64,000 nucleotides of DNA, taken from assembly GCA_052034235.1 (NCBI GenBank), contig JBPOIT010000009.1:72203-136202 (forward strand), in the 5' to 3' direction. Under the pieces are notes generated by a model that saw only the letters and a list, made by a program, of their open reading frames with translations, was not told the DNA's origin and made no database searches. This document shows, piece after piece, positions 12,276 to 32,064 of this stretch (positions are counted from its first letter, which is position 1; each line of letters begins with the position of its first letter). The position numbers and the translations under genes are program-made. This DNA is from Candidatus Levyibacteriota bacterium. GTDB taxonomy: Bacteria; Patescibacteriota; Microgenomatia; Levybacterales; UBA12049.

Positions 12276-12953
12276 TTACTCGTAAATCTTTATATATTTA
12301 ATATAGTCATCAACAGTCATCGGAGGGAAAAGTCTAGTTTCAAGCACACTTCCTGTTTGTGAATTAGCTACGAAGGCGATACCTAAATTTGCATAAATAT
12401 ATTCTTCGGCGTTTGGGCCAAAAAATGATGATCCGATAATCTTATATTCTGGATTGCCATAGCTTTCTGTGAAGTGGCTAATTTGCGCTGCTGAATCAGC
12501 AGTAGTAATTTTGCGTTCAAGAAGAATGTTATTGCCCTGGGTAATATAAATATTAGGTCGAGAAGGATTTATTGAAGCTAATGTGTGTTTTACTAATCCA
12601 TTAGGAAGAGTTTCTGATTCTTGAAAGCCTGGCAATGTGTTTATGGGCGCTTCTAATTCTGTTTCATATTCAATTTGGTCAAAATTGATTGATGGAATAG
12701 GGAGTATTGTCATACTTGGTTGTGATGATGGTCTAGTTTGTCCAGGTAATGTTGTTGGTGTGAAAGTCGTATTTGATGTCTCAGGGGTTGATTTCTGAAC
12801 TGGAGTTTGTGGTTGAGATATATAAATTAGTAGCCCAATAAATAATAGTAAAGGTATCGCTGGAATCAGCAGCCATTTATATGTGGCAATAAACCCATAA
12901 ATTTTATCTTTGAAAGCAGAAACATTCATAATTATTAGCATCCAGGTTCCCAA
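12276..12953 (-). CDS. hypothetical membrane-anchored Thr/Pro-rich extracytoplasmic protein
   Basis: N-terminal TM (LLIPAIPLLLFIGLLIYI) followed by a T/P/S-rich linker. No recognisable domain. Confidence 0.4.
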   Translation of the reverse strand: MGTWMLIIMNVSAFKDKIYGFIATYKWLLIPAIPLLLFIGLLIYISQPQTPVQKSTPETSNTTFTPTTLPGQTRPSSQPSMTILPIPSINFDQIEYETELEAPINTLPGFQESETLPNGLVKHTLASINPSRPNIYITQGNNILLERKITTADSAAQISHFTESYGNPEYKIIGSSFFGPNAEEYIYANLGIAFVANSQTGSVLETRLFPPMTVDDYIKYIKIYE

Positions 12954-13669
12954 AAAGTTAATTTTTTTTGCAGTTTAATATCAACATGAAAATGATCATC
13001 GTGCCCAGCAATATATTTCATAACCAGTCCAGTAGATCTATTTGTATCACGTGCATATTTCAAAACAGCGGCATTTACTGCTTGATCGTTATACCAAATA
13101 TTCTCAATAAGATTTGTATCCACAAACATTTTACCAAGCTCAATTGTTTCAGTATCGTTGCTCATTTGAGCCACACGTCTTTTTCCATCAATGTCACCAT
13201 AAATATCTACTGCGCGGCCAATATTATGTGATTTATGACCTGATGCGTTTAAATCGCCTATCCATAATTTGCCATTTGGATATTTTTCTTTCCATCTTAT
13301 AGCAACTGTATTCAGCACACCGACAAGATCCTTATGACCATATCTTTGGTTAGAGCATGCATAGAGAGTATATAGTTCTTTTGGTGCTGGAATTGAGGAT
13401 ACTGGCATCAGGCAATATCCATCGGATTTACATGTTATATTTGGAGGATATGTAATACCTTCTGCTCCGACACCGCTATTACAATTAGGGGGAAGGTTCG
13501 CAGGTGTTCCTTGAATATTTATGTTTACAATAACACAGTTGCTCGTTACCGCTTGAGCTGATGATGTGAAAATGAACGTGAAGAAAACACTAAAGGTGAA
13601 AGTTACTACAGCTAAGAAAAGTGTGCGGTTAATCATAACTAAGATAATCTTACCTATTTTAACAACCAT
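12935..13669 (-). CDS. LAS-superfamily (M15/M74-like) zinc metallopeptidase, a putative peptidoglycan endopeptidase
   Basis: N-terminal TM, then HKSHNIGRAVDI (H-x3-6-D) and a C-terminal GHDDHFHVD (H-x-H). Together these form the LAS zinc-ligand signature. Confidence 0.55.
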   Translation of the reverse strand: MVVKIGKIILVMINRTLFLAVVTFTFSVFFTFIFTSSAQAVTSNCVIVNINIQGTPANLPPNCNSGVGAEGITYPPNITCKSDGYCLMPVSSIPAPKELYTLYACSNQRYGHKDLVGVLNTVAIRWKEKYPNGKLWIGDLNASGHKSHNIGRAVDIYGDIDGKRRVAQMSNDTETIELGKMFVDTNLIENIWYNDQAVNAAVLKYARDTNRSTGLVMKYIAGHDDHFHVDIKLQKKLTFWEPGC

Positions 13670-14201
13670 CAGGCAAGGGGTTAAAGTCTTTGATAGTCTG
13701 AGGATCGAGCGTTGCTTTTATATCGTAATTAAGGTAAAAGCTGACTGGGTAATTACATATACCTTCATCACTAACACCAAAGGTTCGGAACCAGTTTGTC
13801 GCAGCGGTTTTAGCTTCAGCAATATTTGCTGTGAGTATTTCAACTTGAAATGTATCTACGGAAGAGACATATTCTATACTGAACTGCGAAGACATATAAA
13901 GTATGCCTGATAATTGTCCAGGTGGTCGAAGTGAAAGAATCTTTTCTTTCGCAGCAATATCCCAACTTGCTAATGGAGATTTTTGTGATACTTGCTCAAG
14001 GTATCGCTGCTGAGGTGACGTGAATGGTGATTGAGTAAAATCAGGTGGAATAGATGAAGGTTGAACATTCATTGATGGCTGATTTGGGGATTCTTGGTAG
14101 TAACCAGTTGAGTAAATGATTATAAAGATAATCAAACATGCAAAGACTATAATTGTCGGTTTATACTTTTTTATGAATAATAAAAATGACATGATTAACA
14201 A
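13659..14201 (-). CDS. secreted/membrane-anchored hypothetical protein, paralog A
   Basis: N-terminal TM. The C-terminal block FQVEILT..A.AK..A..WFR..G.S..GIC..PV.FYLN.D...C is shared with the next gene. Confidence 0.5.
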   Translation of the reverse strand: MLIMSFLLFIKKYKPTIIVFACLIIFIIIYSTGYYQESPNQPSMNVQPSSIPPDFTQSPFTSPQQRYLEQVSQKSPLASWDIAAKEKILSLRPPGQLSGILYMSSQFSIEYVSSVDTFQVEILTANIAEAKTAATNWFRTFGVSDEGICNYPVSFYLNYDIKATLDPQTIKDFNPLPDGC

Positions 14202-14758
14202 CTATTTGCTAGTGGACTAAAAATGGTTCCTGTTCCGCGAAGTTTTGTCATGGTGTCAGAGTTGAGATAAAAGAGGACAGGAAGGTCACAAATGCCTTTT
14301 TGACTCATACCTCGCGCACGAAACCAAACGTTGGCTTCTGCTTTTGCAGCAGAAATGTCGGTTGTTAATATTTCAACCTGAAACATATTTGCATTGTTCG
14401 TGAAGTCAATAATAATTGTGTCAGATTGGTAGAGGATACCAGAAGGATTCTCCTTGGGTAATGTAGAGAGAATTGTCGCTTTTGCAAAGGTATCGTTATC
14501 TGATAGTGGTATGCGGTTTACAATTTTATCAAGGAGCTTGTCTTGGGCGATTTCGTTATAAGCAACTGGTGGTATATGTGAATTTAAGGAAGGGGTTGGT
14601 GAAAGTGTTGGCAGTATCCGTACTTTGTTTTCTGAAGTATCGTTCAGAGCGGGTTTAGATGAACTATTCGTAAATGCAATGAAAGCTGTTAAAACAACAA
14701 TGATTAGTAGGATTATGCCAAATACAAAAGAAAGAAGGTCACCTTTATTTTTTTTCAT
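14195..14758 (-). CDS. secreted/membrane-anchored hypothetical protein, paralog B
   Basis: Tandem paralog of 13659-14201 with the same conserved C-terminal block and terminal Cys. Confidence 0.5.
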   Translation of the reverse strand: MKKNKGDLLSFVFGIILLIIVVLTAFIAFTNSSSKPALNDTSENKVRILPTLSPTPSLNSHIPPVAYNEIAQDKLLDKIVNRIPLSDNDTFAKATILSTLPKENPSGILYQSDTIIIDFTNNANMFQVEILTTDISAAKAEANVWFRARGMSQKGICDLPVLFYLNSDTMTKLRGTGTIFSPLANSC

Positions 14759-14794
14759 AGTATGTCGTTAGTATAACTGCTTGAGGTATGAGCA

Positions 14795-16897
14795 TCAACG
14801 TGCGCATGACCAATATCTGCCCAAACTCCCAATTTTTTTGCCATAGGTTGTCGCATTTTCTGTTTGGATTTCCCAGTTCAAATCACCACGGTCATTTATA
14901 CCATTTTTACCTTCCGCCGGAGGAGGAAGCCCTGGTGGTGAACTGCTTCCCATCTGGTAAAGTCCCCAGGCACCAGCTGCATCAGGTGTTCCTGTATTTG
15001 GGTTTGCATACGCATTAGGGTTATAACCACTCTCACAAGGAACGATCTTATTAAACCAAACATCAGCATTTGCTGGGTCTGCCTGCTTGAGAAGTGCAAA
15101 TAATTTGTCTTTACTAAAATTACATTGAGGATTGCCAAAATTCTTTCCGATGGTGTTACCAAGAGCACCAGCTGCATCTTTGCCATTACACAGGATATTG
15201 CTTGGAGCTACCCATGTACCTGAAATACCTCCTACTGCTCCAATGGTGTTTACTTCAGCCCAAGTAACAAGGTGAGTCTTATCCTTTGTTACTTTATACT
15301 TTATTGTGATAGTAAAGTTTGGGGGATTAAGAAGTGGAGCAGTAACGTTTTCAGAAGCTTTCCATGTTATTGTTTTGGCTGTCGGATTGAAAAGACGTAC
15401 TTGCCAATCCGAAGTGATGTCAGCATCAAGTAAACTAATCCCGTCAGGTAAGTGATCAATAACGATTACCTCTTGTGCAGGCTTTGTATCTTTAACGGTG
15501 ATAGTAAAAGTGACAATGTCTCCAACTTTTGCATCAAGAAGTGGTGGCAATATTTTTACTTTTTCAACTGTTAATGTCTCAAGAATTGCGTTTTCATTCG
15601 CTCTTTTTTCTTCTTCTTTATCGTTGAAAATGAAAAGGAGAAACATAACAACTAAAAATAATACAATCGCGCCACCTAGTATAGCAAGGCCAACTGGTGT
15701 TTTCGTGAAGAAAAAGATAAGTCCTCTTTCTGCCAGTTTCTTAGTTGCTGCTCCGCCCAATGGATTTGAAGGAACTTTGGGAAATCCGCTTTTAAAATTT
15801 CGACTTGGCACTCTGCCCCGCCTACTATTTGGACCTCTACCATCGTTTCTGTTTCTATCCTCACCATTGTCAGAATCATCATCGTCTTGCGAATCGTCTT
15901 GTTCATATGGGCTTGAAGTGGGATACTCAGGCTGAGGCCCTGGTTCATAGAAGTCAGCTCTAGTATTGCCAAGGACATTGTCATCGTTTGGATTGCCAGG
16001 TTGTCCCCGGTCAAACTCCTCAATGGAATAAGGATCAAAGTCCTCGACAACCCTATCTTCTAGTGGAAGAGGAGGCGGGATATATTTTCGCAGTCCTGGA
16101 ATAACAGCATCTTTTTTGCTAGGAGGAAGTATTATTTTTGTTTTTGGTTTTTTTGTAACCGGCTTTATTTGATTAATTGATTGGTCAGTTTTACCAGCTG
16201 GTGTAGCCGCGGCTTTCGTTATTAGTGATATATCTGGTTTTGTGTTAAAGGGTGAAGATTTTGATCCTTGCGGCAATGGTTTATCGTAACTGCTTTTTTT
16301 CACTGGATCTGTATTCCCTCCACGGAAGATGTTGGTTACAGTTCGTTGCCGTGGAATTTTAGGGATATTCTGGTTGATTGGTATACTTTGGTTGATAGCT
16401 TTTGTGGATGGTGTGCTTACTCCGAACGGGGAAGTACTTTTACTTGTTCTCTCGGTAGAAGCTGCGACTGCTGCTGATACTGTAGTAAGATTTTTTTCGT
16501 CCTTCTTTATATCAGAATAATTACCATTTACTTCAAATGGATTTGGTTTTTTTACTGGACCATGATATCCTTCTTCTTCCTTTTTTTCTTTCTTCTCGGG
16601 TTTTTCTGTTGCAATTTTTCGTATCTCCAGTTCAGCTTCATGATGAATACGGGCGACTATAGCTTTTATATCAGCAATATTTTTTGTAGTAGATGTATCT
16701 CTTTTCGCTTTTAATACTGCATTTTTGATGAGGTCTATGACTTTTGGATTCATAAGTCCTGCCTCATTGGACGTAAGAGAAGAGTTTTTAGTAAGACGTG
16801 CTTCAGGAAGATCCATGAGGTGATCAACAAGTTCTTGGATTTCTTTGTTGAGCGTAGTTATTCGTTCTATTTTGGGATCCTTCGTATCGGTAGCCAT
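14795..16897 (-). CDS. bitopic membrane protein with a DUF11-type Ig-like domain and a C-terminal SLT-like lytic transglycosylase domain, a candidate VirB1 analog
   Basis: Low-complexity cytoplasmic N-terminus, a TM segment (ILGGAIVLFLVVMFLLFIF), and a DUF11-like segment (VGDIVTFTITVKDTKPAQEVIVIDHLPDGISLLD). The C-terminal CESGYNP...GAWGLYQM fits the SLT ES...GAxGLMQ catalytic motif. Confidence 0.55.
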   Translation of the reverse strand: MATDTKDPKIERITTLNKEIQELVDHLMDLPEARLTKNSSLTSNEAGLMNPKVIDLIKNAVLKAKRDTSTTKNIADIKAIVARIHHEAELEIRKIATEKPEKKEKKEEEGYHGPVKKPNPFEVNGNYSDIKKDEKNLTTVSAAVAASTERTSKSTSPFGVSTPSTKAINQSIPINQNIPKIPRQRTVTNIFRGGNTDPVKKSSYDKPLPQGSKSSPFNTKPDISLITKAAATPAGKTDQSINQIKPVTKKPKTKIILPPSKKDAVIPGLRKYIPPPLPLEDRVVEDFDPYSIEEFDRGQPGNPNDDNVLGNTRADFYEPGPQPEYPTSSPYEQDDSQDDDDSDNGEDRNRNDGRGPNSRRGRVPSRNFKSGFPKVPSNPLGGAATKKLAERGLIFFFTKTPVGLAILGGAIVLFLVVMFLLFIFNDKEEEKRANENAILETLTVEKVKILPPLLDAKVGDIVTFTITVKDTKPAQEVIVIDHLPDGISLLDADITSDWQVRLFNPTAKTITWKASENVTAPLLNPPNFTITIKYKVTKDKTHLVTWAEVNTIGAVGGISGTWVAPSNILCNGKDAAGALGNTIGKNFGNPQCNFSKDKLFALLKQADPANADVWFNKIVPCESGYNPNAYANPNTGTPDAAGAWGLYQMGSSSPPGLPPPAEGKNGINDRGDLNWEIQTENATTYGKKIGSLGRYWSCAR

Positions 16898-16944
16898 ACA
16901 TTAATAGTAGCAGAGAATATGTAGTTTGGTAAAACTTCTATAAC

Positions 16945-19308
16945 TTATGTTTTTGTTGGATCTTGTTTGCCAAGGCCGGTGGTAGGAGCTGAGACGTTAC
17001 CACCGACATGAGGAGAATTCATTAATGATGGGTGTGTTGCGTCATCTATGGGAGGAGTGCCTGGTGCAGCGCTCGTAGGGGCAGGTACGTCAAATGTTGC
17101 TGTTTGTTTGGTTAGAATCGGTGCAGCACTTGGGTCTTGACCAGCTGCTTTTTCTGCAGCTAATTTTTCTGCAGCGAGTGCAGCAGGACTTCCCGGGACA
17201 TGCTCGACTGGAGGAGGTGCCGTTGGGTTGCTGCTTAAATTTGCCCCAGTAGGCACTGCGTGTCCGTCTGCAGGTGTTTGGTGCTTTGTTGGTTCAGCAG
17301 CAGGAGCGGGTGCAACAGTGGCTCCTCCACCTGCCGGCGCATCTGGTGGTGGGGTATGTGTGGAATAGGAATGTGGAGCTGTCGGTTCTTCAGGTGGTGT
17401 GGCTGTTTCAGCATCAGCTTTGTCAGCTTCTTTTTCTGCTCCCTCTGCTTTGAGCATTCGTTCTTTGTCTTGCTGTCTTTTTAAGAGCTCAATAGGGTTG
17501 GAGGTTATCAGCTCATGTTCAAAAGGCGCGGCAAACACCTTCATAGCAACGTGATTTTGTCCTGCAAAAAAGAGTCCTTCTCCAACATCAGAGGAAAGGA
17601 GTAATGCTTTTTCACCTTCAGAAAGGTAAAAAGTTTCAGCGATCATGTCGACTTCAGCCGTGCCTTGTTTGAGAAGCACCTGAATGGAAGAGTTGGTGAG
17701 AACAGCTTTACCGTATTCATTTTTCAAAAAGTCTTCAACATCCTGCGTTGCAGTTGTGAGTCCCAGATAATATTTACGCGCACGTTTGGCGATAGAATAG
17801 ACAAAGGAAGCTGAGTCAGGATATTTCATCATGTACCAGCCTTCATCAAGAATCAAAATACGTTTCTTTAAGGATTTCTTCACTTTCGTCCACACGAAAT
17901 CAAGAATAATATGCATAGCCACAGGACGAAGCGCTTCCTCCATATTTCTGATAGAGAAGACAGTTAAAGGATTATTGATAGCAAAGTTTGACTGTTGGTT
18001 AAAAATACCGGCGGCACTTCCTTTGATGAACTTTTCAAGCATATAAGCAATTTCGCGAGAAGGCTGACTTTCCATACCCAGAAGTGTTTTATACAAATCT
18101 TCCATAAGTGGTGGCTCCCGTTTTTGGGTGGCAGGATCTGTTGTAATACCTTTCTGTCTGTATGTCTCAATAAGCGCACGGTCAAGGATAGCGTCGTGTT
18201 CTGCATCCAAATCCCCGGTAATAATTTTTAGTAACCCATGTAGAGAGAGAATTTTAAGCCCGAGCTCGTTTTCGCCTTCTTCGTAAATATCAGAAAGATC
18301 AAACGGATTAATTTTAATTTCAGAGCTTGACGAGAAATCAACAACTTCGCCCCCTAATGCAGGCGTTAAGGTAACATATTCTCCGTCAGGGTCAATAACG
18401 ATAACCTCAGCACCAAGCATAAATTGCCTACTGATTTCGAGTTTGATGGTATACGATTTTCCGGCACCGGATTTTCCTAACACAACTTCGTTAGCGTTTT
18501 CAAGAGAAAACCTATCAAAGATAATAAGTGATCCGTTTTGTTGATTGACTCCATACATAACACCTTTGTTTTGGGTCAGAATTGCGGACGTGAACGGAAA
18601 AGTCGACGCAAGAGAAGAGGTGTCCATATTGCGCGTGACATACAATTTATCAATACCCATAGGAACAGTCGTCTTGAAACCTTCTTCCATTTGCAGTGTC
18701 GCTATCTTTCCGGTGACAAGCAATCCTCCAAGTGCTGTTTGAAGTTCTTTTACGGTTTCTTTGAGCTTTGGCAGTTCTTCGTCCGAAATCGTCAGATAAA
18801 ATCCGAACTGAAAGAACCGCTCAATACCTTTTGCGAGTTCTTCTTGGAGTCCAAGTGCGTCTTCAAGCGCAGCTTCAACACTCGGATCTGCTACTTTTCC
18901 TTGTTCAGCATCAGATGAAAGTGTCGCTTCCATTTCTCCAATTTTTCTTTTTAAATCAGCTAACACGTCTGAGGAAGACGTAGGGTAACAAAACATAGCA
19001 ATATCAAGGGTATGATCATAATCAATAATTGGTTGCAGCCAGCCTGGTGATACGTAACGTGGGTATCCAGCGGCAAAAAGTGTCGTGTAATATGTATCGC
19101 CAACGCGTATGTATCGGAAATCAACTTCAACTGATGAAGGAGCTATGATGTCAACGACGGATGTAAGTCCTTTTTCTACAGTTTCAATTGCTTTACTTGT
19201 CGGTGGTGCTGCAACAGCAGCTTTTGCAGCTTTTCCAGCCATAGGAGCTGTGCCTGCTTTTTGAACAGTAGTGGTTGTGGGTTTTGCATTGCCGAATGGT
19301 AATTTCAT
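16945..19308 (-). CDS. virB4: VirB4/TrbE/CagE-family type IV secretion ATPase with a long Pro/Ala-rich C-terminal tail
   Basis: Walker A VVLGKSGAGKSYT and the VirB4-type ILILDEGWYMM (DEAW-like Walker B). The C-terminal tail of roughly 170 aa is low-complexity. Confidence 0.85.
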   Translation of the reverse strand: MKLPFGNAKPTTTTVQKAGTAPMAGKAAKAAVAAPPTSKAIETVEKGLTSVVDIIAPSSVEVDFRYIRVGDTYYTTLFAAGYPRYVSPGWLQPIIDYDHTLDIAMFCYPTSSSDVLADLKRKIGEMEATLSSDAEQGKVADPSVEAALEDALGLQEELAKGIERFFQFGFYLTISDEELPKLKETVKELQTALGGLLVTGKIATLQMEEGFKTTVPMGIDKLYVTRNMDTSSLASTFPFTSAILTQNKGVMYGVNQQNGSLIIFDRFSLENANEVVLGKSGAGKSYTIKLEISRQFMLGAEVIVIDPDGEYVTLTPALGGEVVDFSSSSEIKINPFDLSDIYEEGENELGLKILSLHGLLKIITGDLDAEHDAILDRALIETYRQKGITTDPATQKREPPLMEDLYKTLLGMESQPSREIAYMLEKFIKGSAAGIFNQQSNFAINNPLTVFSIRNMEEALRPVAMHIILDFVWTKVKKSLKKRILILDEGWYMMKYPDSASFVYSIAKRARKYYLGLTTATQDVEDFLKNEYGKAVLTNSSIQVLLKQGTAEVDMIAETFYLSEGEKALLLSSDVGEGLFFAGQNHVAMKVFAAPFEHELITSNPIELLKRQQDKERMLKAEGAEKEADKADAETATPPEEPTAPHSYSTHTPPPDAPAGGGATVAPAPAAEPTKHQTPADGHAVPTGANLSSNPTAPPPVEHVPGSPAALAAEKLAAEKAAGQDPSAAPILTKQTATFDVPAPTSAAPGTPPIDDATHPSLMNSPHVGGNVSAPTTGLGKQDPTKT

Positions 19309-19967
19309 TTCTTTGCCTCCGTAACCATTGTAGCTTGTATTCCTGGTTCTACTTGTTCCACATTAATCCCAGTTCCCTCATTATAAATATCATAAAAAAC
19401 CTTTATCAAATCTTCCTTCTCAAGCACTCTTGCTGAGGTCGCAAATTTTTGCAACTGACCGAGGAGTGTTGATGCTTTTGTATTCAATGCTTTCTTCGCA
19501 TCGACGGCAGTGATTTGTGCCTGAGACATGCCTTTTTGGACCGTTTGTGTTACAGCACTCACTCCAGCTTCAAGTGGAGAATAGGGGATAACGATATAAA
19601 ACGATTTACTCAAAACAACATTAACAGTAACCATCTCATGTACGAACGTGCGGTAATACTCAATATATTGTTTTAATTGTGGATTTTCAGTTTGGGCGAT
19701 AATCTCATCAAGCGATTTAAGATAGATTGAGATGTCGATGCGTTTATTTCTAATGAGAATTTGGATAGGGAAAGAGAGTGAGTTAAGAAGTGATGCGTAC
19801 GCAAAGATGCGGGTATCTTGTTCACGGCGTGATAGGAGCGCGAAGTTACTTGCTGTGATTTCGATAATCATGCAAGCAGCGCCTCCTTCAAGAACAACCA
19901 CATTGTCAACAAAGTCGACAATTTCGGTAAACTTTTGCGTTGTAGCATGTATTTTTTGGGCAGCCAT
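19305..19967 (-). CDS. hypothetical soluble protein translationally coupled to virB4 (ATGA start/stop overlap)
   Basis: 220 aa with no TM. The 4-nt overlap with the virB4 start implies they form an operon. Confidence 0.45.
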   Translation of the reverse strand: MAAQKIHATTQKFTEIVDFVDNVVVLEGGAACMIIEITASNFALLSRREQDTRIFAYASLLNSLSFPIQILIRNKRIDISIYLKSLDEIIAQTENPQLKQYIEYYRTFVHEMVTVNVVLSKSFYIVIPYSPLEAGVSAVTQTVQKGMSQAQITAVDAKKALNTKASTLLGQLQKFATSARVLEKEDLIKVFYDIYNEGTGINVEQVEPGIQATMVTEAKK

Positions 19968-19972
19968 ACGTT

Positions 19973-21295
19973 TTAATTAAATAATTGTTTTCGCAATTCT
20001 TCCCTCGCATCATGGGAAATAATTTCAATTGGTAACATAATTTGATTACTGGCGGTGATCTGAATGACGTCAAACGTGTGTTGTTTTTTTGGATCGTCAA
20101 GTTCAATTGTATAGATACCTTTTGCGAGAGGCGTTGCTGAAGCAAATTGTCCAAGGGCGTTTGTTTTAAACGCACGGACAGGATTACCATCTTTGTCTTT
20201 TACTTCGACAAGCATGTTTGGCAAGATGTTCCCACGAGGATCTTTGACAATTCCCACAACAACGTTTGGTGTATCTGAAATGTTTGGCAAGTCGACTTTT
20301 TTAGCGGGCGCCTGCGGTACCGTTTTCGCATACTGGGAAGCTGGAATTGCAACTGGTGAAGGTGCAGCGGCTGGAATTGGGGTTGGTGCAGCGGCTGCAA
20401 CAACCGGTTGTGCTACAACAGCAGGTTGCACAACTGTTGGTTGTGCTTTTTGTGCTACTAACTGGGATTGTAATTGTTGGATTTCCTGTTCCAATTTGAG
20501 TTTTTGCGTGTGAATCTCCTGAATTTGAGTTTCGAGAGTGGTAACTTTCTCGTGCGCTGCCGGAGCATGTGTTATATTTTCTTCCTGTTTTGCTGTTTGC
20601 AGTTCGTTTTGAAGCTGGTTCTCTTTTTGAGTCAATGATTGCTCTTTTTCCTGCTGGCCAGTAGCCGGCGTTTGCGTAGGTACAACAAGTGGTATTGCGA
20701 CAGCTGCCACTGTTGGTTTCATAGCGATGGGTTTTAAAGCTGGAGTAGGAGAGGCAGTCTGGGCAACAGAGTTTGTGACAGTTGGTAGTGATAATGAGCT
20801 AAGCATCGCTTGTTCCTTCTTATCGAGAGAGTTACTGCTCTGACTATGAGAATTTCGTAAAAATGCCTGCAATTGTGCTGCTTTTATGTCCACACCAGCT
20901 TGTTTTACTGATGCGGTTGTACTTTGTTTGGCGGGTTCTCCCTCAGCGGCAAGTGCAACTTTTGTATAGTTTACCGTCGAAAAACTGAATCTCCTACCAG
21001 TTTTTTTGTATATATATTGATTTGGAGAAAAAATTGCCTTAAAAAAGTTTCCTGCCATGACATCAACAGGTCTTCCTTCAATCGGAACAAATGCAATAAA
21101 CGCCCCACTACCCCCAAGGATTGGAATTAAAAGTACTTTTGTGAGTATTCCAAATATACCAGGCAGGGGTAAATAATAAAGAACAAAGGCCATAATAACA
21201 CCACTCGCGACGTAGCCAAATTGCTTGACGGTCATGGTACCGATGAGTTTAAACTGAAAACCTGTTACGTCTTGTGGAATTGGATGCTGATCCAT
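19973..21295 (-). CDS. PrgI/VirB3-like membrane protein with a coiled-coil, Gln/Ala/Pro-rich linker and a C-terminal beta-sandwich-like domain
   Basis: The N-terminus (FKLIGTMTVKQFGYVASGVIMAFVLYYLPLP) matches the PrgI-family TM hairpin. It has a long QELQ coiled-coil and a C-terminal VVGIVKDPRGN..VEVKDKDGNPV block that looks like a carboxypeptidase-regulatory domain. Start set at ATG 21295; the ORF track's start is GTG at 21322. Confidence 0.5.
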   Translation of the reverse strand: MDQHPIPQDVTGFQFKLIGTMTVKQFGYVASGVIMAFVLYYLPLPGIFGILTKVLLIPILGGSGAFIAFVPIEGRPVDVMAGNFFKAIFSPNQYIYKKTGRRFSFSTVNYTKVALAAEGEPAKQSTTASVKQAGVDIKAAQLQAFLRNSHSQSSNSLDKKEQAMLSSLSLPTVTNSVAQTASPTPALKPIAMKPTVAAVAIPLVVPTQTPATGQQEKEQSLTQKENQLQNELQTAKQEENITHAPAAHEKVTTLETQIQEIHTQKLKLEQEIQQLQSQLVAQKAQPTVVQPAVVAQPVVAAAAPTPIPAAAPSPVAIPASQYAKTVPQAPAKKVDLPNISDTPNVVVGIVKDPRGNILPNMLVEVKDKDGNPVRAFKTNALGQFASATPLAKGIYTIELDDPKKQHTFDVIQITASNQIMLPIEIISHDAREELRKQLFN

Positions 21296-21447
21296 ATAAA
21301 TAAACACAAACAGAATCTGCACTCATAGGTGCTTTACTGTTGCTAAAAGTGTATAACGTGAAAAATTTGATTGCAACTCCAACAAAGTGGGTCAAACAAC
21401 ATAGACATTTGAGGCTAATCGTGAAAAGGGGTGTTTTAGAGAGGGTG

Positions 21448-21852: not shown

Positions 21853-21871
21853 AGATTAGGCTTGCGCGATT

Positions 21872-24122: not shown

Positions 24123-24187
24123 TTGTAAGCTTTTTGTTACCCCAATATAAAGCAGTTTTTAACTGAGACACGTAAAATAGCCTCATT

Positions 24188-27100
24188 ATGAGTAATCCAA
24201 ACGAAGAAGAAAAATTGACACCAAGTTCGGCGAAAGGCTATGATGGAGATAGTACTCAAATGGCTGAAAAACCTGAAATTGAAAATTCTGATGAAGAAAG
24301 AGATCCTCACGATAGTGAGGTAGACCCTCATGGAGAAGATAAACCGGAAACGAATGAACAGCAAAATACAGAGACGAAAAAAAATACTATTGCTGAAATG
24401 TTTAGTGCACTTCTTTCCTCAGTAAATCCTGAGAATGGTGGTCCGGAAGATAAAATCTTCAAAACAGTTGTTGAGGCAGTTACAGACGCAACTTCAAAAA
24501 ATAAGAATCCCAATAAAGCAATTGCTGAAGTAATGAGCTCATTTCTTCTTCCCAATAAGCCAGCTGCAGATTCTACGGAGGAAGAGTTGGAAGGAACAAA
24601 AAAAGCGAGAGTGGTTTTTGATACCATTCTTGAGAGTGCAGAGGAAGCACATCTTGATTCAAAAGCAATTTTAAAAGAGCTTGCAGGTATCGCTAAAGAA
24701 CAGCAGGAAGAACTACCTACAACGGCTCAAGATAGATATGTAGTATTTGAGCAGCATTTGAAAAAAACCCTTAATACTGCTTCTGACGAGGCACTTCAGA
24801 TTATGCACGAAGACCTGAAAAAACTTCGTGCAGAGATAGCCAATGACACCCAGCTCGATGAAGGCGTGTACGAAGCGGTTTTAGATTCGGAAACGCTTCT
24901 CGCAGAAGTGGTAGAAGTAAAAGAAGACACAGCAACGCAGGAATTTATAGAAATTCAACAGGCAAATGATAAAAAATTTGCTCAAGTTATCGTAACTGTT
25001 TTTGAATCAGTTGCAGAGACCCGATTCACAAATCTTACTCCTGGCAAAGAAGTTAATTTGCGAAAAGAAGAACAGCTGAAAGCAGATCATCTCATGAAAC
25101 TCTTATTGGCGAGTGATGATCCTAAGCAACAAAAGCAGGAATTAGTTGCAGCACTGCTGACGAGTTATCCAGTTGCAGGTTCAAGTGCTGAGCAGCAAGA
25201 AGCACTTGCAATGAGAGAACGAATCATGGGTTATGCAAAACTTGCCGGGTTGGACGAGAAAGCAATTTTAGACAATCAAGCGATTATTGCAGCTGAGGAT
25301 ATGCTTGTGTCAAAAACAGATGCAGTAAATGATTCTGAGTCTATAGTTGGGTCTGATCTCAATGCGTTTGAGAGAAAAGTTGAACAGCAAATTGCCAATG
25401 CTTCAGCGGAAAGAGTGAAAGAGATTCAGGATACATGGAAGGATTTACTAGAAAGTGTTGATCCCAATAGTGAAACGGCTCGTGAAGCTCTAGAAGCAAT
25501 CGCGGTGCTTGATAACATTATCCAACTAAAAGAAATGCAAGCAGCTCGAGATCGAGGGGAATCTGTTGATTTCAGTACACTTCCGGTGCCAAAGGAATAC
25601 AAACATAATGATCACGAAGCAAAAGAATCGGCAAGCAAAAGTGAATCTGATAAAGAATTAGCAGCTTTACTCGCCAAGCTTTTCTCACCGCTTCGTAAAG
25701 GTGACAAAGCAGAAGATTATGCGCTGGTAAGTGTAATTACCGATTTTATTCTTGCGTCAGAACATACCAAAGAAGAAAAAGAAGCACTAATTGCTGGTAT
25801 TGCCAAATGCTTCTCTCAAAAAGATACCCATACATCTGAAGCGAATGACATACCCTCCTATCTCCGAATATATGCGGATTCCGTGGCATTAGCTCAGCCA
25901 ACAGTTGATGCAGGAACATCAGAAAAAGAAGGACATGAAGACACACCTGAGTTATTGCAGAAACTTATCGAAGAAGCATTAGCTAAAGTTTCTCACAAAG
26001 ACCTTATTCAGTTAAAAGGTGCACTGGGCTTTGTTGCTATTAAAGAAAAACCTTCAGCTGAGATTAAAGAACAGATTACACAAACGATAGCTTTTATTAA
26101 TGCTCTGCCAACTGATAAAGAAAATGCAAAAAAAGCTGATGCATCACAGCGGCCTGTCGAGAAGCCAGAGAAAGCGATCAAAGCTGAAGATGCAGAGAAA
26201 ATAGAAGAAAGATTGGTTGAAGGCTCAATGCAGACAATAGAAGCAAAGAGGCAATCATTCTTCGAAGAGACGCACTTTATTAATGAAGAAAACAATATCG
26301 AGCGGTTTAATGTTGTGCGTTTAGAGAATTATGCAAACAACCTGAAGGATTTAGGTAGTCAACTCTCTGAGTCGGAGCTCAAGTCAGCTTATATGGCGCT
26401 GCAAAAACAGATAACACTTTCCAGAAGAGCTCCGGAATTTAATGGCAATTTTCATTTGGACGAAGTATTACACGTCAACGAGATTTCTAATGATGCGCTG
26501 CGTGATATCGTGGCTCGGTTGCGAGAAACAATGGCTCCTGCCGAGGTAATGAAGTTCATTAATGAGACAAAACGCTCGTTGAGAGATAATAAAGCATATA
26601 ACGAGCGACTTTCTCTACCTCCACGAGTTTACAATATGGAGCCAACGGTTGTTGAAGCTTCTGTTGGTAATCGATACTACGAACCCGGCTCGAGGTTTCA
26701 ATTAGGGAACGCTATTAACGAGATTCGTTCCATGTCCACGACGCCAGATCCTGCTTTGCCAGCAAATTTAGGATCTGATTATACAGAAATTGCAACAAAT
26801 ATAAAGACCCAACAGGAATTTTCTAATACGGCAGTATTGGAAGATCGTATGCATAAGCTTAACTCTCTGATGTCTGAAGGTATGAGAGCAGGTATCAATC
26901 TTAAGGACATGACACAGGCACAGGCTTTGGCGCAGCAATTACATGCACAGCGACAAGAAATAGCAGTAATGGAGCAAATGTATAAAGGTCAGATGGATGA
27001 ACGAACATATAAAGCTGAAGATGAAGCACTCTACGAAGGTTATATACATACAGCTCTTGGAGAACGGATTAAACGTATTCAAATCGAGTTGGAGATCAAA

Positions 27101-30100
27101 TCCGGATTGCGATCACGTACTTATGTTGATTCGAGTGGGAATACCCACACGCATAAGGTTCGAACAGACGAAGAGCTTATAGCTTATTACACAGAACTGC
27201 GAAAATGGGCAAAAATTCTTCTAAAAAATGATGTGCGAAATAATGCGGGTAAAGCAGGGCAAGAAGGGGCGCTTAATTTATCGAACGAACGGTTTAAGCG
27301 ATATAGTGACATTGTAAAAGCTCTCCCAGACTCTTTTGATCTTGCAAATGCGACGGATACTGCAGCTATGCTAAGTAACGTTAATTACATGTTTGATATA
27401 ACAACATCAGGAGGAGATTTTTTGCGCTACTTTATGAGAAATACGAAAAATCCAAAAGGAATTGATCCAGAGAAACATGACTCAATAGATTTTAATCCTC
27501 ATGAATTACTGGGGGTCGATTATCGCCATGCTGAAGGTACCAGTTCGTTCGGGTTGCCGAAATCTCTGGAGGATACCATGGCAATTATGGCAAGACAGTA
27601 CTCTACAGAGAAAATTAATTATAGAACTGGAGGAGATCACGAATTATTCGATGGGGAAGGAAATTTTAAATTCAACAATTTCTATTACCTCATTCGTGAA
27701 CAGATTCTGAACAATGATATCTTATATAACAAAGATGGACAGATTAACCCAATGCAAAAAATTACCGTAAAGGGTGATGCTTCATCAGTCTCTCTGGCAG
27801 AGTTATTGGTTTTAATGCCTGAATATTTATCCCAAAGAACGTTTGATATCGTTGTCGATAACGATGGAGACGTTACTTCAGGATGGGGGCGTCCAACAGA
27901 ACACCCTGAATTTACGTGGGCACAAGCACAACAGTTGGGTGCTGAAGTTGAATTTAGAATCATGACTCACGAAGCGAGAATTCAGTATGTCCAAGCGTCA
28001 CTTGCTGGGGATAAAGGGAAGTATTTGCAACTTATGGAGTATTTGCATAAATCAAATCATTGGGTTCGTGCGAATAATATTATGTGGCTGCTTGGTTTAC
28101 CATCAGCGGTAACAAATGGTTCGCAGGAAATTATAGATGTCGTTGGTCCCAAAGAAACCCAAGGCACACTCGGAAAAGCAGTGAGCGATATGCTCGTTGG
28201 GTATAATTATATAAATGAAGTCTCAAAATATTACAAACATGCAAATGGGGAAGAGAAAACCTTCAATGAAAACATGTTTTATAGATTTTGGGAACCAAAT
28301 GGCGCAAATAAATTTCTTGTAACTATGACTGAAGAGACATTAAATAACTACAGTGACGCCAAAAGAGAATATGGGCGATTTATTCAGGAGCGCATACAGG
28401 CGGCAGCAGTGAGGGCTCGCTCTCTTGCGGGAGGAGATGCTGTCAAACTCGAAAAAATTGACCGCCAACTACAAGACCAAACACAAGCAATTCAGGCGGA
28501 AATGGATAAACAAAATGTAGGACTTGATATTCGGTTTACCAAAGACAGTCATTTAATGAAATTTTTACAATATACAGAAAAAGAAGTGTTGGGAAGGAAA
28601 TTCCGTAATAAAAAAGAAGAAGAAGAGTATTTCAAATTTACGGTGCGTGATGATCTCCTTGATAATTTAAAAGGCGGTTTGTTTACAAAATTAGCTGATA
28701 TGCAAGTTCATGAACTTGATACACTTGTAGATAAAAATAATAAGACCAAAGATCGTCCTGATACCTATCTTTTTCTTCGGGCAAAACAGAATAAAATGCG
28801 CTTTGGGGACATACGTTTTGATGGGCAGACGATAGAAGAGTTGTTAAACGACTTTAACCCTGAGCAAATCAAACGGTTTGATTACACAAACAAGGCAGAT
28901 GATCCACGAAATCACTTCAGTGCTTTCGCAAATGATCCTGATCGATTGCGAAGAGAATTGGATACGTATATGGATGCGAAAATTAATCCAGAGAATTACA
29001 AGTTCTTTAAACATAACGAAAAAATGATGCTTGCCTTTCTCAAACATGTAACGCGAATTGATCGGGCATGGCTTAATCATTTCCGTGATATTCCGGAGAA
29101 TGAAGTTGTAAAAGATATGGAGAAACGCGCAATGGAAGAATGTGTACAGCTAGTCCATGGTGTTGATGACATAGAAGCGACATACGCATGGTGGCAAGCA
29201 CGAGATTATATCTATATTTGGGGAATTGGTGATTGGTTGGATGATAGTGGTATCGGATTCAGAACTGGTGGTAAACTTTTTCATACTGGCAAATGGCGTG
29301 CACATAGAGGTGGCAAAGACGGTGCTGGGAATAAAGACACCTTCGACGAATTTGGAGCAGTGGCGCTACCCTTCTTAAACACTATTCAAATTCATGATAT
29401 AGAAGGGCATCAAGAGCTTGGGCATCAAAGTATTTTTAGTTTACTACAAGGCGGGCATGGCTATAATATTACACCACGTGCTGCACGTGAGTTTAAACCA
29501 CGTAGTCGGTACTCGATAGCGCATGATTCTGAAGAGTTATATGTCGCAAATATGCTTTCAAACGCAGCAGAACTTGCAGATTTACTCTCAACGACGGAAG
29601 TTGACTTTACGAATATTGTTGCGACAGATCCTTTGGGTAATATTGTTTTTGATTATGGAAAAGCACGAGAGCTGTTTAAAAAATGGCGTAAAGCTATCAG
29701 ATATTCATATCAAAAAAACGGTATTGATTATCGCGAGAAAATCTGGGTTGACGGACAGGAGAAAACCCTGTATGAATTTTGTTTTGGTAAAAAAACACGT
29801 GCAATTAATGAACTGATCAGACAAGAAACTGGTCGCTCTATTGACGATATGTTTCGTGATACGGCAGATGCTGTTATGGCATCAATTATTGCTGCTGAAG
29901 TCTATGAACACAGGAAAATGCATTTGAGTGGCCATCACTGGACAATCGAGAATGTGATTGAACTCGAAAAAGTTATCCGGGAGTTTATGGATGAGTCTGA
30001 TTTAGAAGAAGACGAACATGGAGATGTTGAGCTCGTGCGTAAAGGCAATGCCTTCACAAAAAAAGTCTTCAGCGGCGCACTGAAAGCATATCATACAAGT

Positions 30101-30211
30101 TATGAAAAAATGTATATGGCAGAATTGAATTCATCTTTCTGGGGAGGTTTGTTCGCAGGCTTATGGGCAGGATTGAATGCCTCACTCACGAAAGGGAAAT
30201 GGATATATTAG
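24188..30211 (+). CDS. giant (2007 aa) hypothetical protein with an acidic low-complexity N-terminus, no signal peptide, and a short hydrophobic C-terminus
   Basis: An uninterrupted 6 kb open frame in an AT-rich genome. No recognisable catalytic motif. The C-terminal FWGGLFAGLWAGL segment is hydrophobic/amphipathic. Its stop overlaps the convergent virB6-like gene. Confidence 0.7.
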   Translation: MSNPNEEEKLTPSSAKGYDGDSTQMAEKPEIENSDEERDPHDSEVDPHGEDKPETNEQQNTETKKNTIAEMFSALLSSVNPENGGPEDKIFKTVVEAVTDATSKNKNPNKAIAEVMSSFLLPNKPAADSTEEELEGTKKARVVFDTILESAEEAHLDSKAILKELAGIAKEQQEELPTTAQDRYVVFEQHLKKTLNTASDEALQIMHEDLKKLRAEIANDTQLDEGVYEAVLDSETLLAEVVEVKEDTATQEFIEIQQANDKKFAQVIVTVFESVAETRFTNLTPGKEVNLRKEEQLKADHLMKLLLASDDPKQQKQELVAALLTSYPVAGSSAEQQEALAMRERIMGYAKLAGLDEKAILDNQAIIAAEDMLVSKTDAVNDSESIVGSDLNAFERKVEQQIANASAERVKEIQDTWKDLLESVDPNSETAREALEAIAVLDNIIQLKEMQAARDRGESVDFSTLPVPKEYKHNDHEAKESASKSESDKELAALLAKLFSPLRKGDKAEDYALVSVITDFILASEHTKEEKEALIAGIAKCFSQKDTHTSEANDIPSYLRIYADSVALAQPTVDAGTSEKEGHEDTPELLQKLIEEALAKVSHKDLIQLKGALGFVAIKEKPSAEIKEQITQTIAFINALPTDKENAKKADASQRPVEKPEKAIKAEDAEKIEERLVEGSMQTIEAKRQSFFEETHFINEENNIERFNVVRLENYANNLKDLGSQLSESELKSAYMALQKQITLSRRAPEFNGNFHLDEVLHVNEISNDALRDIVARLRETMAPAEVMKFINETKRSLRDNKAYNERLSLPPRVYNMEPTVVEASVGNRYYEPGSRFQLGNAINEIRSMSTTPDPALPANLGSDYTEIATNIKTQQEFSNTAVLEDRMHKLNSLMSEGMRAGINLKDMTQAQALAQQLHAQRQEIAVMEQMYKGQMDERTYKAEDEALYEGYIHTALGERIKRIQIELEIKSGLRSRTYVDSSGNTHTHKVRTDEELIAYYTELRKWAKILLKNDVRNNAGKAGQEGALNLSNERFKRYSDIVKALPDSFDLANATDTAAMLSNVNYMFDITTSGGDFLRYFMRNTKNPKGIDPEKHDSIDFNPHELLGVDYRHAEGTSSFGLPKSLEDTMAIMARQYSTEKINYRTGGDHELFDGEGNFKFNNFYYLIREQILNNDILYNKDGQINPMQKITVKGDASSVSLAELLVLMPEYLSQRTFDIVVDNDGDVTSGWGRPTEHPEFTWAQAQQLGAEVEFRIMTHEARIQYVQASLAGDKGKYLQLMEYLHKSNHWVRANNIMWLLGLPSAVTNGSQEIIDVVGPKETQGTLGKAVSDMLVGYNYINEVSKYYKHANGEEKTFNENMFYRFWEPNGANKFLVTMTEETLNNYSDAKREYGRFIQERIQAAAVRARSLAGGDAVKLEKIDRQLQDQTQAIQAEMDKQNVGLDIRFTKDSHLMKFLQYTEKEVLGRKFRNKKEEEEYFKFTVRDDLLDNLKGGLFTKLADMQVHELDTLVDKNNKTKDRPDTYLFLRAKQNKMRFGDIRFDGQTIEELLNDFNPEQIKRFDYTNKADDPRNHFSAFANDPDRLRRELDTYMDAKINPENYKFFKHNEKMMLAFLKHVTRIDRAWLNHFRDIPENEVVKDMEKRAMEECVQLVHGVDDIEATYAWWQARDYIYIWGIGDWLDDSGIGFRTGGKLFHTGKWRAHRGGKDGAGNKDTFDEFGAVALPFLNTIQIHDIEGHQELGHQSIFSLLQGGHGYNITPRAAREFKPRSRYSIAHDSEELYVANMLSNAAELADLLSTTEVDFTNIVATDPLGNIVFDYGKARELFKKWRKAIRYSYQKNGIDYREKIWVDGQEKTLYEFCFGKKTRAINELIRQETGRSIDDMFRDTADAVMASIIAAEVYEHRKMHLSGHHWTIENVIELEKVIREFMDESDLEEDEHGDVELVRKGNAFTKKVFSGALKAYHTSYEKMYMAELNSSFWGGLFAGLWAGLNASLTKGKWIY

Positions 30212-32064
30212 CGCTTCTGTCCGTCTGCAAATCCATTAAATTTGACCAGTTTGTAACGGAGACGTTTCATTGCAGGTACATATGATTGTCTATTACCCCA
30301 ACTGAAGTTTGGATCCCCAGTCTCTGCACCTTTTCCGGCAGCGACTCTTCGTAGCCATCCAGCATCATGTTCGTGCAGTTTGGCATTGCGTGTGCCATGG
30401 TTCCACATTGCGCCAAACGCAGCTCTTGGTACTGCTGCTCCAGCTGCAAGTCCTGCTCCAATTGCTGCTCCATGTTTTGTCCCAGTCACTTTAAGAGATT
30501 CCTGAAGAATGGCGAGCATTGATGGTGACATCAAGAGTAGTCCAAAAGCAATAAGCCATCCCATAAGCCCAAGGATATTTGGATTTCCTATAAGCGGGGC
30601 GATAAAATAGTCTGGAGTGCCGGCTGCGATCGCAGAATCTCCAGCAGCAGCGGCAGCAGTGCTTTTATTACTGAATAACTCCACAAACAAACGTGCTAGC
30701 ACAAAGACAAAGGCTGTAACAGGAAAAACTGCGAGATTAGCAACCATTGAGCGAAGCCATTTTTCAAAACCAAGTGGTTTACCAGGTAGTAATCCCATCA
30801 CAATAAAGAACGGGGCAGCTATAGAATAAATTATGACATAGGTGTAGGCTTTAAGTAGGGTAAACCATACACTAAAAAGTACTTTCAAAATTGTAATAAG
30901 AATAATAAGCCATAAGAGCATTTTTGCAATAAAACCAATGACAGTTGCAAAGCATCCTCTAAACGAAAATCCACCTAGACCAATACCACAATCATCTGTA
31001 TTTTTTATATTCATCATCTGCTTAATAAGTTGTTCCATAAATTGTCCCAAACTGTATGAAACTTCCTGGGTAATATTTTTAATGCCTATATCAATATCAT
31101 TGTCGCCAAAATTCAAAACGTCATTGTTCTCAGCGACTCTAAACACGTTATTCACATAGGTCAAAGGCATTTGGAGTAAATTAGCGGTAGCTACATCAGA
31201 AAGTGGACGAGTTTGTGAATTAGGATCTTTGGCGTTGCCGTTTGCGTCAAGTGATGTATCTAAATTTTTATCACCGGGAACCATGGGATTTGTGATTGAG
31301 TTTTCGCCTGGGCCTCCTGCTGATGTAATGACGTTGATGCCGACATAAGTCGTTAGCCACATTGTATCAATGAGTAACCCTGCAATTCCGTATGAAAAAG
31401 TTACGAGAATAATACAAACTATAATGCGAGGAATTTGATTTTGAATTGTCATAATTGTTCGAGGAGACATTTCAATTCGAAGCATTATGCCAAGGCCGAT
31501 GATGACGAACGCAACCATCAAAAGAAAATATGCCATATTTCGAATAGCAGTCCAGAGTGTTAATAAGGGGTTTAGCCCTTGAAACCCATATCCAAATTCC
31601 TGCGCATATGCGGGTTTCACTATGCCGAAGTTCTGTGCGAGATAGTCTGTATACTGACTTGTACTGATTGTTGGTGTATATAAGGCACTAATCAAATTTG
31701 TAGAAGCACCCACAATACCTCCAATTTTTGGAGAACCATCCTTATCCAGTGAAGCAGGATTATACCCAATTTTGCCGGTGGTAGGATTAACGTCCAAACA
31801 AGCATGGTTTTGATCCACTGGATCTATTCCGACGAGTATACACATCGTTGATGCCATGAGATCAATCATGAGTGTTTGTACCCTCGTGTGTTGGTTCACC
31901 GGAACATTGGAGTCGGTATTTGGCAAATTGTAGGAGTTGCCTGTATTTGACGTTGGATATGAAGATTGTGTTGATGTTTGAGCAAGCACTGGTGAGGTCC
32001 CAAAAAAGAACGTCACAAGTGATAAACAGAAGACTACAATAAAAGCGCGGGCAGCAAAGCGCAT
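30208..32064 (-). CDS. VirB6/TrbL-like polytopic membrane protein
   Basis: Signal peptide, a roughly 150-aa S/T/N-rich extracytoplasmic region, then at least 6 TM helices with long loops. It sits within the T4SS-like locus. Confidence 0.45.
   Translation of the reverse strand: MRFAARAFIVVFCLSLVTFFFGTSPVLAQTSTQSSYPTSNTGNSYNLPNTDSNVPVNQHTRVQTLMIDLMASTMCILVGIDPVDQNHACLDVNPTTGKIGYNPASLDKDGSPKIGGIVGASTNLISALYTPTISTSQYTDYLAQNFGIVKPAYAQEFGYGFQGLNPLLTLWTAIRNMAYFLLMVAFVIIGLGIMLRIEMSPRTIMTIQNQIPRIIVCIILVTFSYGIAGLLIDTMWLTTYVGINVITSAGGPGENSITNPMVPGDKNLDTSLDANGNAKDPNSQTRPLSDVATANLLQMPLTYVNNVFRVAENNDVLNFGDNDIDIGIKNITQEVSYSLGQFMEQLIKQMMNIKNTDDCGIGLGGFSFRGCFATVIGFIAKMLLWLIILITILKVLFSVWFTLLKAYTYVIIYSIAAPFFIVMGLLPGKPLGFEKWLRSMVANLAVFPVTAFVFVLARLFVELFSNKSTAAAAAGDSAIAAGTPDYFIAPLIGNPNILGLMGWLIAFGLLLMSPSMLAILQESLKVTGTKHGAAIGAGLAAGAAVPRAAFGAMWNHGTRNAKLHEHDAGWLRRVAAGKGAETGDPNFSWGNRQSYVPAMKRLRYKLVKFNGFADGQKR

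Follow-up and report, generated by a model that had tools for sequence, protein, structure and literature searches.

Much of the uncultivated diversity of bacteria belongs to the Patescibacteria, which live attached to other microbes and in which type IV secretion systems (T4SSs) have recently been described. In the saccharibacterium Southlakia epibionticum, an essential T4SS (SEML1_0006-0019) was reported that is most like Gram-positive conjugative T4SSs and contains an essential series of pilins, and in which neither a coupling protein nor a relaxase is recognisable; its requirement for epibiotic growth was established by transposon sequencing (Tn-seq) in S. epibionticum only (Wang 2023, Cell, PMC10633639). 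A survey found 2,474 virB4 genes in 2,417 of 3,035 Patescibacteria genomes, forming a monophyletic clade nested in MPF-FATA; TrsD is the most abundant of the components associated with them, Microgenomatia are rich in pilin arrays, and relaxases are rare (Quinonero-Coronel 2025, Microb Genom, PMC12102498). According to the same survey, dnaA, dnaN, rnpA and rpmH are frequent virB4 neighbours in Microgenomatia and Paceibacteria, VirB6 homologs are scarce in Microgenomatia, where divergence is suspected, VirB8 is nearly undetectable, and genes for VirD4-like type IV coupling proteins (T4CPs) occur in most Patescibacteria, far from virB4 (PMC12102498). A 2025 review lists the Patescibacteria systems as a recognised T4SS subtype (PMC12857230). 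Here we analyze a 64-kb stretch of a metagenome-assembled Candidatus Levyibacteriota genome (contig JBPOIT010000009.1), hereafter the window, and in it a block of about 20 kb at window positions 12276-32064. An earlier note, made from the letters alone, had taken this block for a chromosomal, non-conjugative T4SS-like machine in a monoderm-type organism, a description that component scans, synteny and the published work support (PMC10633639, PMC12102498, PMC12857230). We hold with high confidence that the block is a chromosomal, vertically inherited T4SS of Patescibacteria (Microgenomatia, Levyibacteria-like), descended from monoderm conjugation machinery (MPF-FATA) and most likely serving an epibiotic lifestyle.

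Results

Core components of the T4SS locus

The features that mark the Patescibacteria clade of T4SSs come together in this block: a chromosome of the Candidate Phyla Radiation (CPR), with housekeeping context typical of that group, an MPF-FATA VirB4, a TrsD-like gene, PrgI with a pilin array, no close relaxase and a position near the replication origin (Table 1). The block ends coincide with open reading frame (ORF) boundaries, as the earlier note had drawn them, 12276 being the stop end of a 225-aa ORF and 32064 the start of a 618-aa ORF. Inside, a closely packed gene set occupies the minus strand between 22712 and 12276, two divergent plus-strand genes cover 22788-30211 and an additional minus-strand gene lies at 30208-32064, with several overlaps of 4-19 nt between neighbouring gene ends. 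Gene map and tRNA scans (ARAGORN, Rfam) place rnpA, dnaA and dnaN to the left and a tRNA gene cluster to the right, the setting that had been read from the sequence.

For comparison, one genome per GTDB species was scanned for close VirB4 relatives (48-89% identity), which gave 80 related loci, nearly all from metagenome-assembled genomes (MAGs) of Levyibacteriota, Microgenomates, Gottesman-, Woese- or Shapirobacteria, some record titles being evident placeholder taxonomy. Gene counts over these loci come from tblastn of every window protein, HMM searches giving the same picture, and are lower bounds because many loci are truncated by contig ends.

VirB4 is the most firmly assigned component. 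It matches Pfam P-loop_TraG (2.6e-24), as well as DUF87 and AAA_10. Its 366.7 bits for NCBIfam NF045971 ("VirB4-like conjugal transfer ATPase, CD1110 family") exceed that family's cutoff of 325, a result that relates it to the MPF-FATA class; the GKSGAGKS and DEGW motifs on which the ATPase had first been called are both in the translation, in agreement with Pfam and NCBIfam. At least 7,987 homologs were found at E<=1e-20; identity over the aligned region is 70-100% for the best 120 of them, and those of the 120 that carry a taxon name, few in number, are MAGs, including Levyibacteriota. The NF045971 match spans only profile positions 182-734 of 752, so the usual N-terminal domain is missing. 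The adjacent p220 matches positions 128-265 of a second VirB4 profile, NF045975 (3e-9), and the TrsD/TraD family NF041427 over its full length (4.4e-4, under the curated cutoff of that family). These matches indicate that VirB4 is split into two genes, with p220 as the predicted TrsD-like VirB4 N-terminal domain encoded separately. An hhalign comparison of the p220 family with the window-type VirB4 family gave a probability of 0.3%, which agrees with p220 being the domain that this VirB4 lacks, and a p220-like gene adjoins VirB4 in 76 of the 80 loci.

Next to p220 lies the PrgI/VirB3-like gene that had been proposed, its 449-aa product scoring above the Pfam cutoff for PrgI (PF12666, 1.1e-6, 29.5 bits against 27); the PrgI domain is followed by an Ala/Pro/Gln-rich linker and a C-terminal CarboxypepD_reg-like beta-sandwich (3.3e-6, under cutoff), and a PrgI gene stands beside VirB4 in 75/80 loci. 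All three proteins expected to be VirB2/TrbC-like pilins exceed the PF18895 cutoff of 26.6 bits (28.2, 37.3 and 30.6 bits), and on this family membership we assign the proteins of the array as putative pilins. They are divergent (29-36% pairwise identity), with two hydrophobic helices each in the mature part. Such arrays occur in about 35 of the 80 loci, with 106 pilin ORFs.

The VirB6-like assignment of p618 rests on its orthologs and a structure model. The protein has a signal peptide and about seven transmembrane (TM) helices, and 12 of 60 homologs, at 35-45% identity, match PF04610 (VirB6/TrbL; best 1.9e-5); the modelled polytopic helical fold resembles TrwI, and the gene is linked to virB3/virB4. 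The proposed VirB6-like polytopic protein thus stands through orthologs and model, and not through its own sequence, which gives no PF04610 match at E<=0.01. A VirB6-like gene was found in 27/80 loci. As the fold model suggests, p618 and its roughly 440 homologs probably are the divergent VirB6 that the survey suspected in Microgenomatia.

Two cell-wall hydrolases complete this part of the locus. p700 consists of a low-complexity cytoplasmic region of about 400 aa, a TM helix (406-424), a DUF11 repeat (TIGR01451, 6.3e-8) and a C-terminal lysozyme/SLT-like domain, an architecture that looks PrgK/VirB1-like. The SLT motif ascribed to this membrane protein holds at the family level: 8 of 18 orthologs match Pfam SLT (best 2e-5), the C-terminal family profile matches C-type lysozyme 2fbd (1.1e-4), and the Glu at the catalytic position of the CES.YNPNAY motif is invariant in the family. 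For the window protein itself it does not, the SLT match being only E=0.15. A VirB1-like bitopic peptidoglycan hydrolase is therefore present downstream of virB4 with family-level support; the gene was detected in 24/80 loci. A thiolase relation of the p700 C-terminus was rejected, a single-sequence phmmer search against PDB having given only spurious matches, so that the family profile was needed. The LAS endopeptidase of the earlier note is confirmed by Pfam Peptidase_M74 (1.4e-8; 35 bits, cutoff 25), an NCBIfam murein endopeptidase family (3.2e-8) and H..D and HFH motifs in the translation of the 244-aa ORF.

Inheritance and position beside the replication origin

Pfam scans of the principal ORFs (>=~110 aa) of the 64-kb window, including the one that runs off its right end and leaving out a few shorter or antisense-overlapping ORFs, contained no relaxase, VirD4/FtsK-type ATPase, integrase or transposase, and the scanned ORFs otherwise have housekeeping and envelope functions. 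The absence of a coupling protein, relaxase and integrase in or near the block, first noted from the letters alone, is thereby upheld for the ORFs scanned. No att-like direct repeats flank the block, the tRNA-Ser 3' end is not repeated near dnaN, and an oriT is not recognisable without a relaxase family, to none of which the window has a match. The combination that would make the block an ordinary integrative and conjugative element (ICE), namely a relaxase, a T4CP and flanking att sites, was looked for and not found in the window. A promoter and terminator scan gave counts equal to those of shuffled sequences.

The surroundings of the locus are conserved as well. In 58 of the 80 loci dnaN lies within 10 kb, always convergent, and in 57 dnaA lies within the same distance. 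A synteny check of the dnaN-to-virB6 block, which the earlier note had called for, showed an order conserved across species. The Levyibacteria-type order reads VirB6-like, large ORF, regulator, three pilins, PrgI, TrsD, VirB4, hydrolase, p187, (p180, LAS), p225, dnaN, dnaA, rnpA; more distant Microgenomatia have the VirB6-like gene upstream of PrgI, on the strand that PrgI occupies, and no pilin or regulator gene was detected between the two. This gene order, including the convergent dnaN-dnaA in 58/80 species genomes, argues for vertical inheritance of the locus and against an ICE. VirB4 identity tracks that of DnaA and DnaN (Spearman 0.75 and 0.79), and VirB4 has been conserved more strongly (48-86% identity across the same genomes) than DnaA (35-71%) or DnaN (29-76%), which points to vertical inheritance under strong constraint and to no mobile element. 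For a secretion ATPase, conservation above that of DnaA and DnaN amounts to an unusually strong constraint.

Perfect DnaA boxes (TTATCCACA) occur three times in the whole window, at 9539, 10833 and 10979, and one-mismatch boxes twice, at 10854 and 11113, giving a cluster at 10833-11121 plus the box at 9539. Since all of them gather at dnaA/dnaN, oriC probably lies there. The 10-kb T4SS operon (12276-22712) is transcribed toward this probable oriC, head-on to the rightward fork, and its end meets dnaN tail to tail, the dnaN stop (12268) being 8 nt from the p225 stop end (12276); the orientation is conserved, the convergent dnaN/T4SS arrangement being that of 58/80 related genomes. Gene dosage, the published explanation for the position, leaves the head-on orientation of the operon unaddressed.

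G+C is 0.40-0.44 in the block and 0.35-0.37 in its flanks. Long low-complexity linkers are found in the PrgI-like protein and p700, and VirB4 has a Pro/Ala-rich C-terminal tail of about 170 aa. The locally raised G+C (0.42-0.44) coincides with low-complexity tracts (window 16945-17450 and 20000-20900).

Bitopic proteins in the VirB8 position

p180 and p187 each have an N-terminal TM helix, a linker, an alpha/beta domain of about 120 aa and an invariant C-terminal Cys. A search for VirB8-like (NTF2) folds among the VirB4-proximal proteins had been suggested; p187, the one VirB8 candidate folded by structure prediction, gave a model that is not NTF2-like, so the expectation is not supported for it. 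Going by that model, p187 appears to occupy the PrgL position without likeness to VirB8; its gene was found in 23/80 loci. p225 has one N-terminal TM helix and a conserved extracytoplasmic domain, with no match in Pfam, NCBIfam or PDB (a profile search against PDB included), and sits at the same position in 17-22 related loci.

A conserved regulator and a large, fast-evolving protein

The gene divergently transcribed from the pilin operon, across a 76-nt intergenic region, encodes a P-loop NTPase-like N-terminal region joined to an OmpR/PhoB-type winged helix (Trans_reg_C, 5.7e-19). The N-terminal region matches AAA_16 weakly (18.3 bits, under the 32.6-bit cutoff), and its Walker A reads GIPGTGRTS, with Arg in place of Lys. 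Of 23 orthologs whose sequence includes the GxPGxxR[ST] motif, 20 have this Arg; two distant orthologs have GKS. The K-to-R change that the earlier note described is thus shared by most orthologs, and the gene was found in 24/80 loci.

Beyond the regulator lies the ORF of 2 kaa that the earlier note had listed; it is intact, 2007 aa long and acidic, with neither signal peptide nor TM helix. tblastn of p2007 against the 80 loci gave only three weak matches, and a crude mixed-family HMM failed to detect the large ORFs of its family. The gap between VirB6-like gene and regulator nevertheless measures 3.2-5.1 kb in 17/17 loci that carry both genes, and each of these gaps is filled by one large ORF of 884-1326 aa on the p2007 strand. 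By hhalign, the p2007 group aligns with these positional orthologs of about 1000 aa at 98.9% probability (E 3.6e-17) over p2007 residues 1028-1992. A lineage-specific insertion, the other origin considered for p2007, was rejected on account of these homologous ORFs. An exhaustive phmmer search of 1.84e9 representative proteins returned only 35 representatives, 120-2358 aa long; the shortest are probably fragments, and full-length members have the conserved module at their C-terminal end. Searches of the family against Pfam, PDB and PADLOC gave no match. Like p2007, the family shows neither signal peptide nor TM helix, and no residue of catalytic type is invariant in it. These alignments suggest that the C-terminal part of p2007, about 1000 aa, is a conserved, fast-evolving and locus-specific family. 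PADLOC defence models run on the uncharacterised proteins of the locus gave nothing significant.

The first 30 nt of the p245 gene, to the right of the block, resemble the start of the 2007-aa gene (24185-24214) at 77% identity. The possibility prompted by this repeat, that p245 is a relative of p2007, was tried and dropped, BLASTP detecting no relation (E=2).

Other features of the window

Just past the tRNAs lies a gene for a membrane protein whose listed ORF start overlaps tRNA-Ser, its true start probably being Met52. In five loci of distant Microgenomatia a homolog of this protein, 30-36% identical, immediately follows VirB4 downstream and is encoded on the other strand. Five of the six window tRNAs are tRNA-Ser, and tRNA-Ser(ACU) stands 1.1 kb from the ordinary tRNA-Ser(GCU).

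Table 1. Features of the T4SS block and its surroundings, in window coordinates
Feature	Position	Strand	Basis or remark
dnaA	9565-10917	+	Translation; precomputed Pfam Bac_DnaA on identical gene
dnaN	11159-12268	+	Translation; precomputed Pfam DNA_pol3_beta on identical gene
p225, last operon gene	12276-12953	-	TM prediction, synteny
LAS-family (M74, MepA-like) murein endopeptidase, 244 aa, secreted or membrane-anchored	12935-13669	-	Pfam, NCBIfam
p180, bitopic	13659-14201	-	Paralogue of p187; in PrgL/VirB8 position
p187, bitopic	14195-14758	-	In PrgL/VirB8 position
p700, predicted VirB1/PrgK-like bitopic cell-wall hydrolase, 700 aa	14795-16897	-	TIGR01451, family profile, TM
VirB4 ATPase, 787 aa (MPF-FATA, CD1110 type)	16945-19308	-	Pfam, NCBIfam
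p220, predicted TrsD-like, 220 aa	19305-19967	-	NCBIfam; overlaps virB4 start by 4 nt
PrgI/VirB3-like membrane protein, 449 aa	19973-21322	-	Pfam
Three putative VirB2-like pilins	21448-21852, 21872-22315, 22368-22712	-	PF18895 T4SS_pilin
NTPase-winged-helix (wHTH) regulator, 444 aa	22788-24122	+	Trans_reg_C, Walker A
p2007	24188-30211	+	hhalign, positional orthologs
p618, predicted VirB6/TrbL-like polytopic membrane protein	30208-32064	-	Orthologs, structure model
tRNA-Ser(GGA)	32156-32245	-	ARAGORN and Rfam; right-hand block boundary, not an att site
p245	32388-33125	+	Acidic coiled-coil-like protein with C-terminal hydrophobic tail
Membrane protein, ~215 aa	33338-33985	+	No Pfam match
tRNA-Ser(GCU)	37528-37621	-	
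LAGLIDADG_3 homing-endonuclease-like ORF	37624-38625	-	Between tRNA-Ser(GCU) and tRNA-Ser(ACU)
tRNA-Ser, anticodon ACU (A34; anticodon loop TTACTAA)	38736-38821	+	Rfam 52.2 bits
AcrB-type RND transporter (1e-151) beside HlyD-like membrane-fusion protein	39455-44375	-	Organism presumed without outer membrane

Discussion

With neither a relaxase nor a coupling protein in the window and with the locus fixed beside oriC, the system most likely serves not plasmid or ICE transfer but an epibiotic lifestyle, in which it would make contact with the host and export or exchange cargo such as protein. By analogy with described machines, the lysozyme-like and M74 hydrolases would open the cell wall, VirB3, VirB6 and the split VirB4 (with TrsD) would form a membrane platform, and VirB4 hexamers would pull pilins from the membrane and polymerise them into a VirB2-type pilus or channel, which would reach from the ultrasmall bacterium to the host cell that it lives on. 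Several points weigh against this reading. Essentiality has been shown in one Saccharimonadia species only and in none of the Microgenomatia (PMC10633639), and pilus formation by PF18895 proteins has never been directly observed. No VirB8-like protein was detected in the locus, p187 being the one candidate folded, and the p618 and p700 of the window fall under family thresholds, their assignments coming through orthologs and structure models. A VirD4-like T4CP may also lie elsewhere in the genome, outside the 64-kb window.

Among the alternatives, a purely adhesive organelle, in which VirB2-type pili attach the cell to its host and nothing is translocated, is improbable. The divergence of the three pilin genes suggests surface variation, the window has no T4CP, the usual substrate receptor, and in Gram-negative systems VirB4 is by itself sufficient for pilus biogenesis (PMC12857230). 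Patescibacteria, however, already use type IV pili for adhesion (PMC12857230), and a conserved VirB6-like channel subunit together with a large cytoplasmic protein fits translocation at least as well.

We give somewhat less credence still to a DNA-import machine like Helicobacter pylori ComB or archaeal Ced, in which VirB4 and pilins would import DNA or nucleotides from the host, the bacterium being unable to make its own. ComB and Ced resemble the window in having no relaxase or T4CP, this VirB4 also matches CedB (7e-12), and T4SS loci of the ABY1 class lie beside comF, recG and radA (PMC12102498). The CedB match is nonetheless far weaker than the CD1110 match, and Pfam scans found no competence or recombination genes in the locus. 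In S. epibionticum, moreover, competence depends on type IV pili and ComEC, and cells deleted for comEC lose transformation but stay viable, in contrast to the essential T4SS (PMC12857230). Insertion of an integrated conjugative element between dnaN and tRNA-Ser, be it intact or now a decayed remnant, can practically be dismissed: the tRNA-Ser abutting the right end, the slightly higher G+C of the block and a VirB4 type otherwise found on Gram-positive conjugative elements speak for it, whereas the ORFs scanned over 64 kb include no integrase, relaxase or T4CP, the tRNA end has no direct repeat near dnaN, the same gene order stands beside dnaN/dnaA in most of the species-level genomes, VirB4 diverges in step with DnaA and DnaN, and the higher G+C coincides with Ala/Pro-rich linker regions.

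If the locus is indeed an epibiotic T4SS, p2007 might be the cargo dedicated to it or a factor of host contact, an effector or tip protein that would reach the host bacterium without a coupling protein and diverge with host specificity, while p187, p180 and p225 might replace VirB8 in the wall-spanning part; we regard this as a doubtful proposal.

No T4SS before that of the Patescibacteria had been shown to be essential to the organism that carries it, and among monoderm lineages theirs alone has VirB2-like pilins. As the system has been described in papers of 2023-2025, the locus is one more example of it, independently rediscovered, and no discovery; conceptually the window adds nothing new. 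It does provide a clean, complete Microgenomatia example in which every gene is assigned or bounded, and it goes slightly beyond the published papers in its divergent VirB6 (p618), a protein in the PrgL position that is not NTF2-like, the conserved regulator and giant protein, and the conserved head-on orientation. The giant protein and regulator, being conserved, could guide the search for cargo and control.

Comparison with known systems

Set against Gram-negative VirB/D4 systems (MPF-T; R388 Trw, Agrobacterium tumefaciens VirB), the locus is without VirB5, VirB7, VirB9, VirB10 and VirB11, has no outer-membrane core and carries a VirB4 of a different clade. The T4CP-less T4SSs (Bordetella Ptl, Brucella VirB, H. 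pylori ComB, archaeal Ced) likewise function with no coupling protein dedicated to them in the locus and are not conjugative, but they are diderm or archaeal, have other subunit sets and carry known cargoes (toxin, effectors, imported DNA).

Gram-positive conjugative MPF-FATA systems (pCF10 PrgH-PrgL; Clostridioides difficile CTn2 CD1110; pGO1 TrsD) are closer, the locus VirB4 passing the CD1110 equivalog cutoff. The earlier note had stated that complement and order do not match PrgA-L; for the core this was wrong, the one-strand order VirB6-like, PrgI (VirB3), [TrsD], VirB4, VirB1-like hydrolase being collinear with prgH-I-J-K of pCF10 (PMC12857230). A TrsD-like protein is shared with pGO1, and PrgK has the intracellular domain, TM helix and extracellular muramidase-like domain seen in p700. 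Unlike pCF10-type systems, the 64-kb window holds no T4CP (PcfC) or relaxase (PcfG), and no adhesin (PrgB) was recognised in it. No NTF2/VirB8-like protein was found here, whereas VirB2-like pilins are present here and absent there, and the locus is inherited vertically as part of the chromosome and does not sit on a plasmid or ICE.

The closest likeness is to the Patescibacteria-clade T4SSs themselves, although this locus belongs to Microgenomatia and not to Saccharimonadia as in S. epibionticum, and has three pilins, not six. Its VirB6-like gene is of a kind that the survey HMMs mostly missed in Microgenomatia, and the Levyibacteria-type extras, namely the K-to-R NTPase-wHTH regulator, the fast-evolving protein of 0.9-2.4 kaa and p187/p180/p225, go unmentioned in the main text of the survey (PMC12102498). 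In common are the MPF-FATA-type VirB4 with a TrsD-like gene beside it, PrgI/VirB3, VirB6, tandem divergent PF18895 pilins, a peptidase and a lysozyme-like gene just downstream of virB4, and a chromosomal site adjoining dnaA/dnaN/rnpA with no relaxase or T4CP nearby. The label "non-canonical" given to the locus at first sight thus applies in relation to textbook systems only; for Patescibacteria the arrangement is the standard one.

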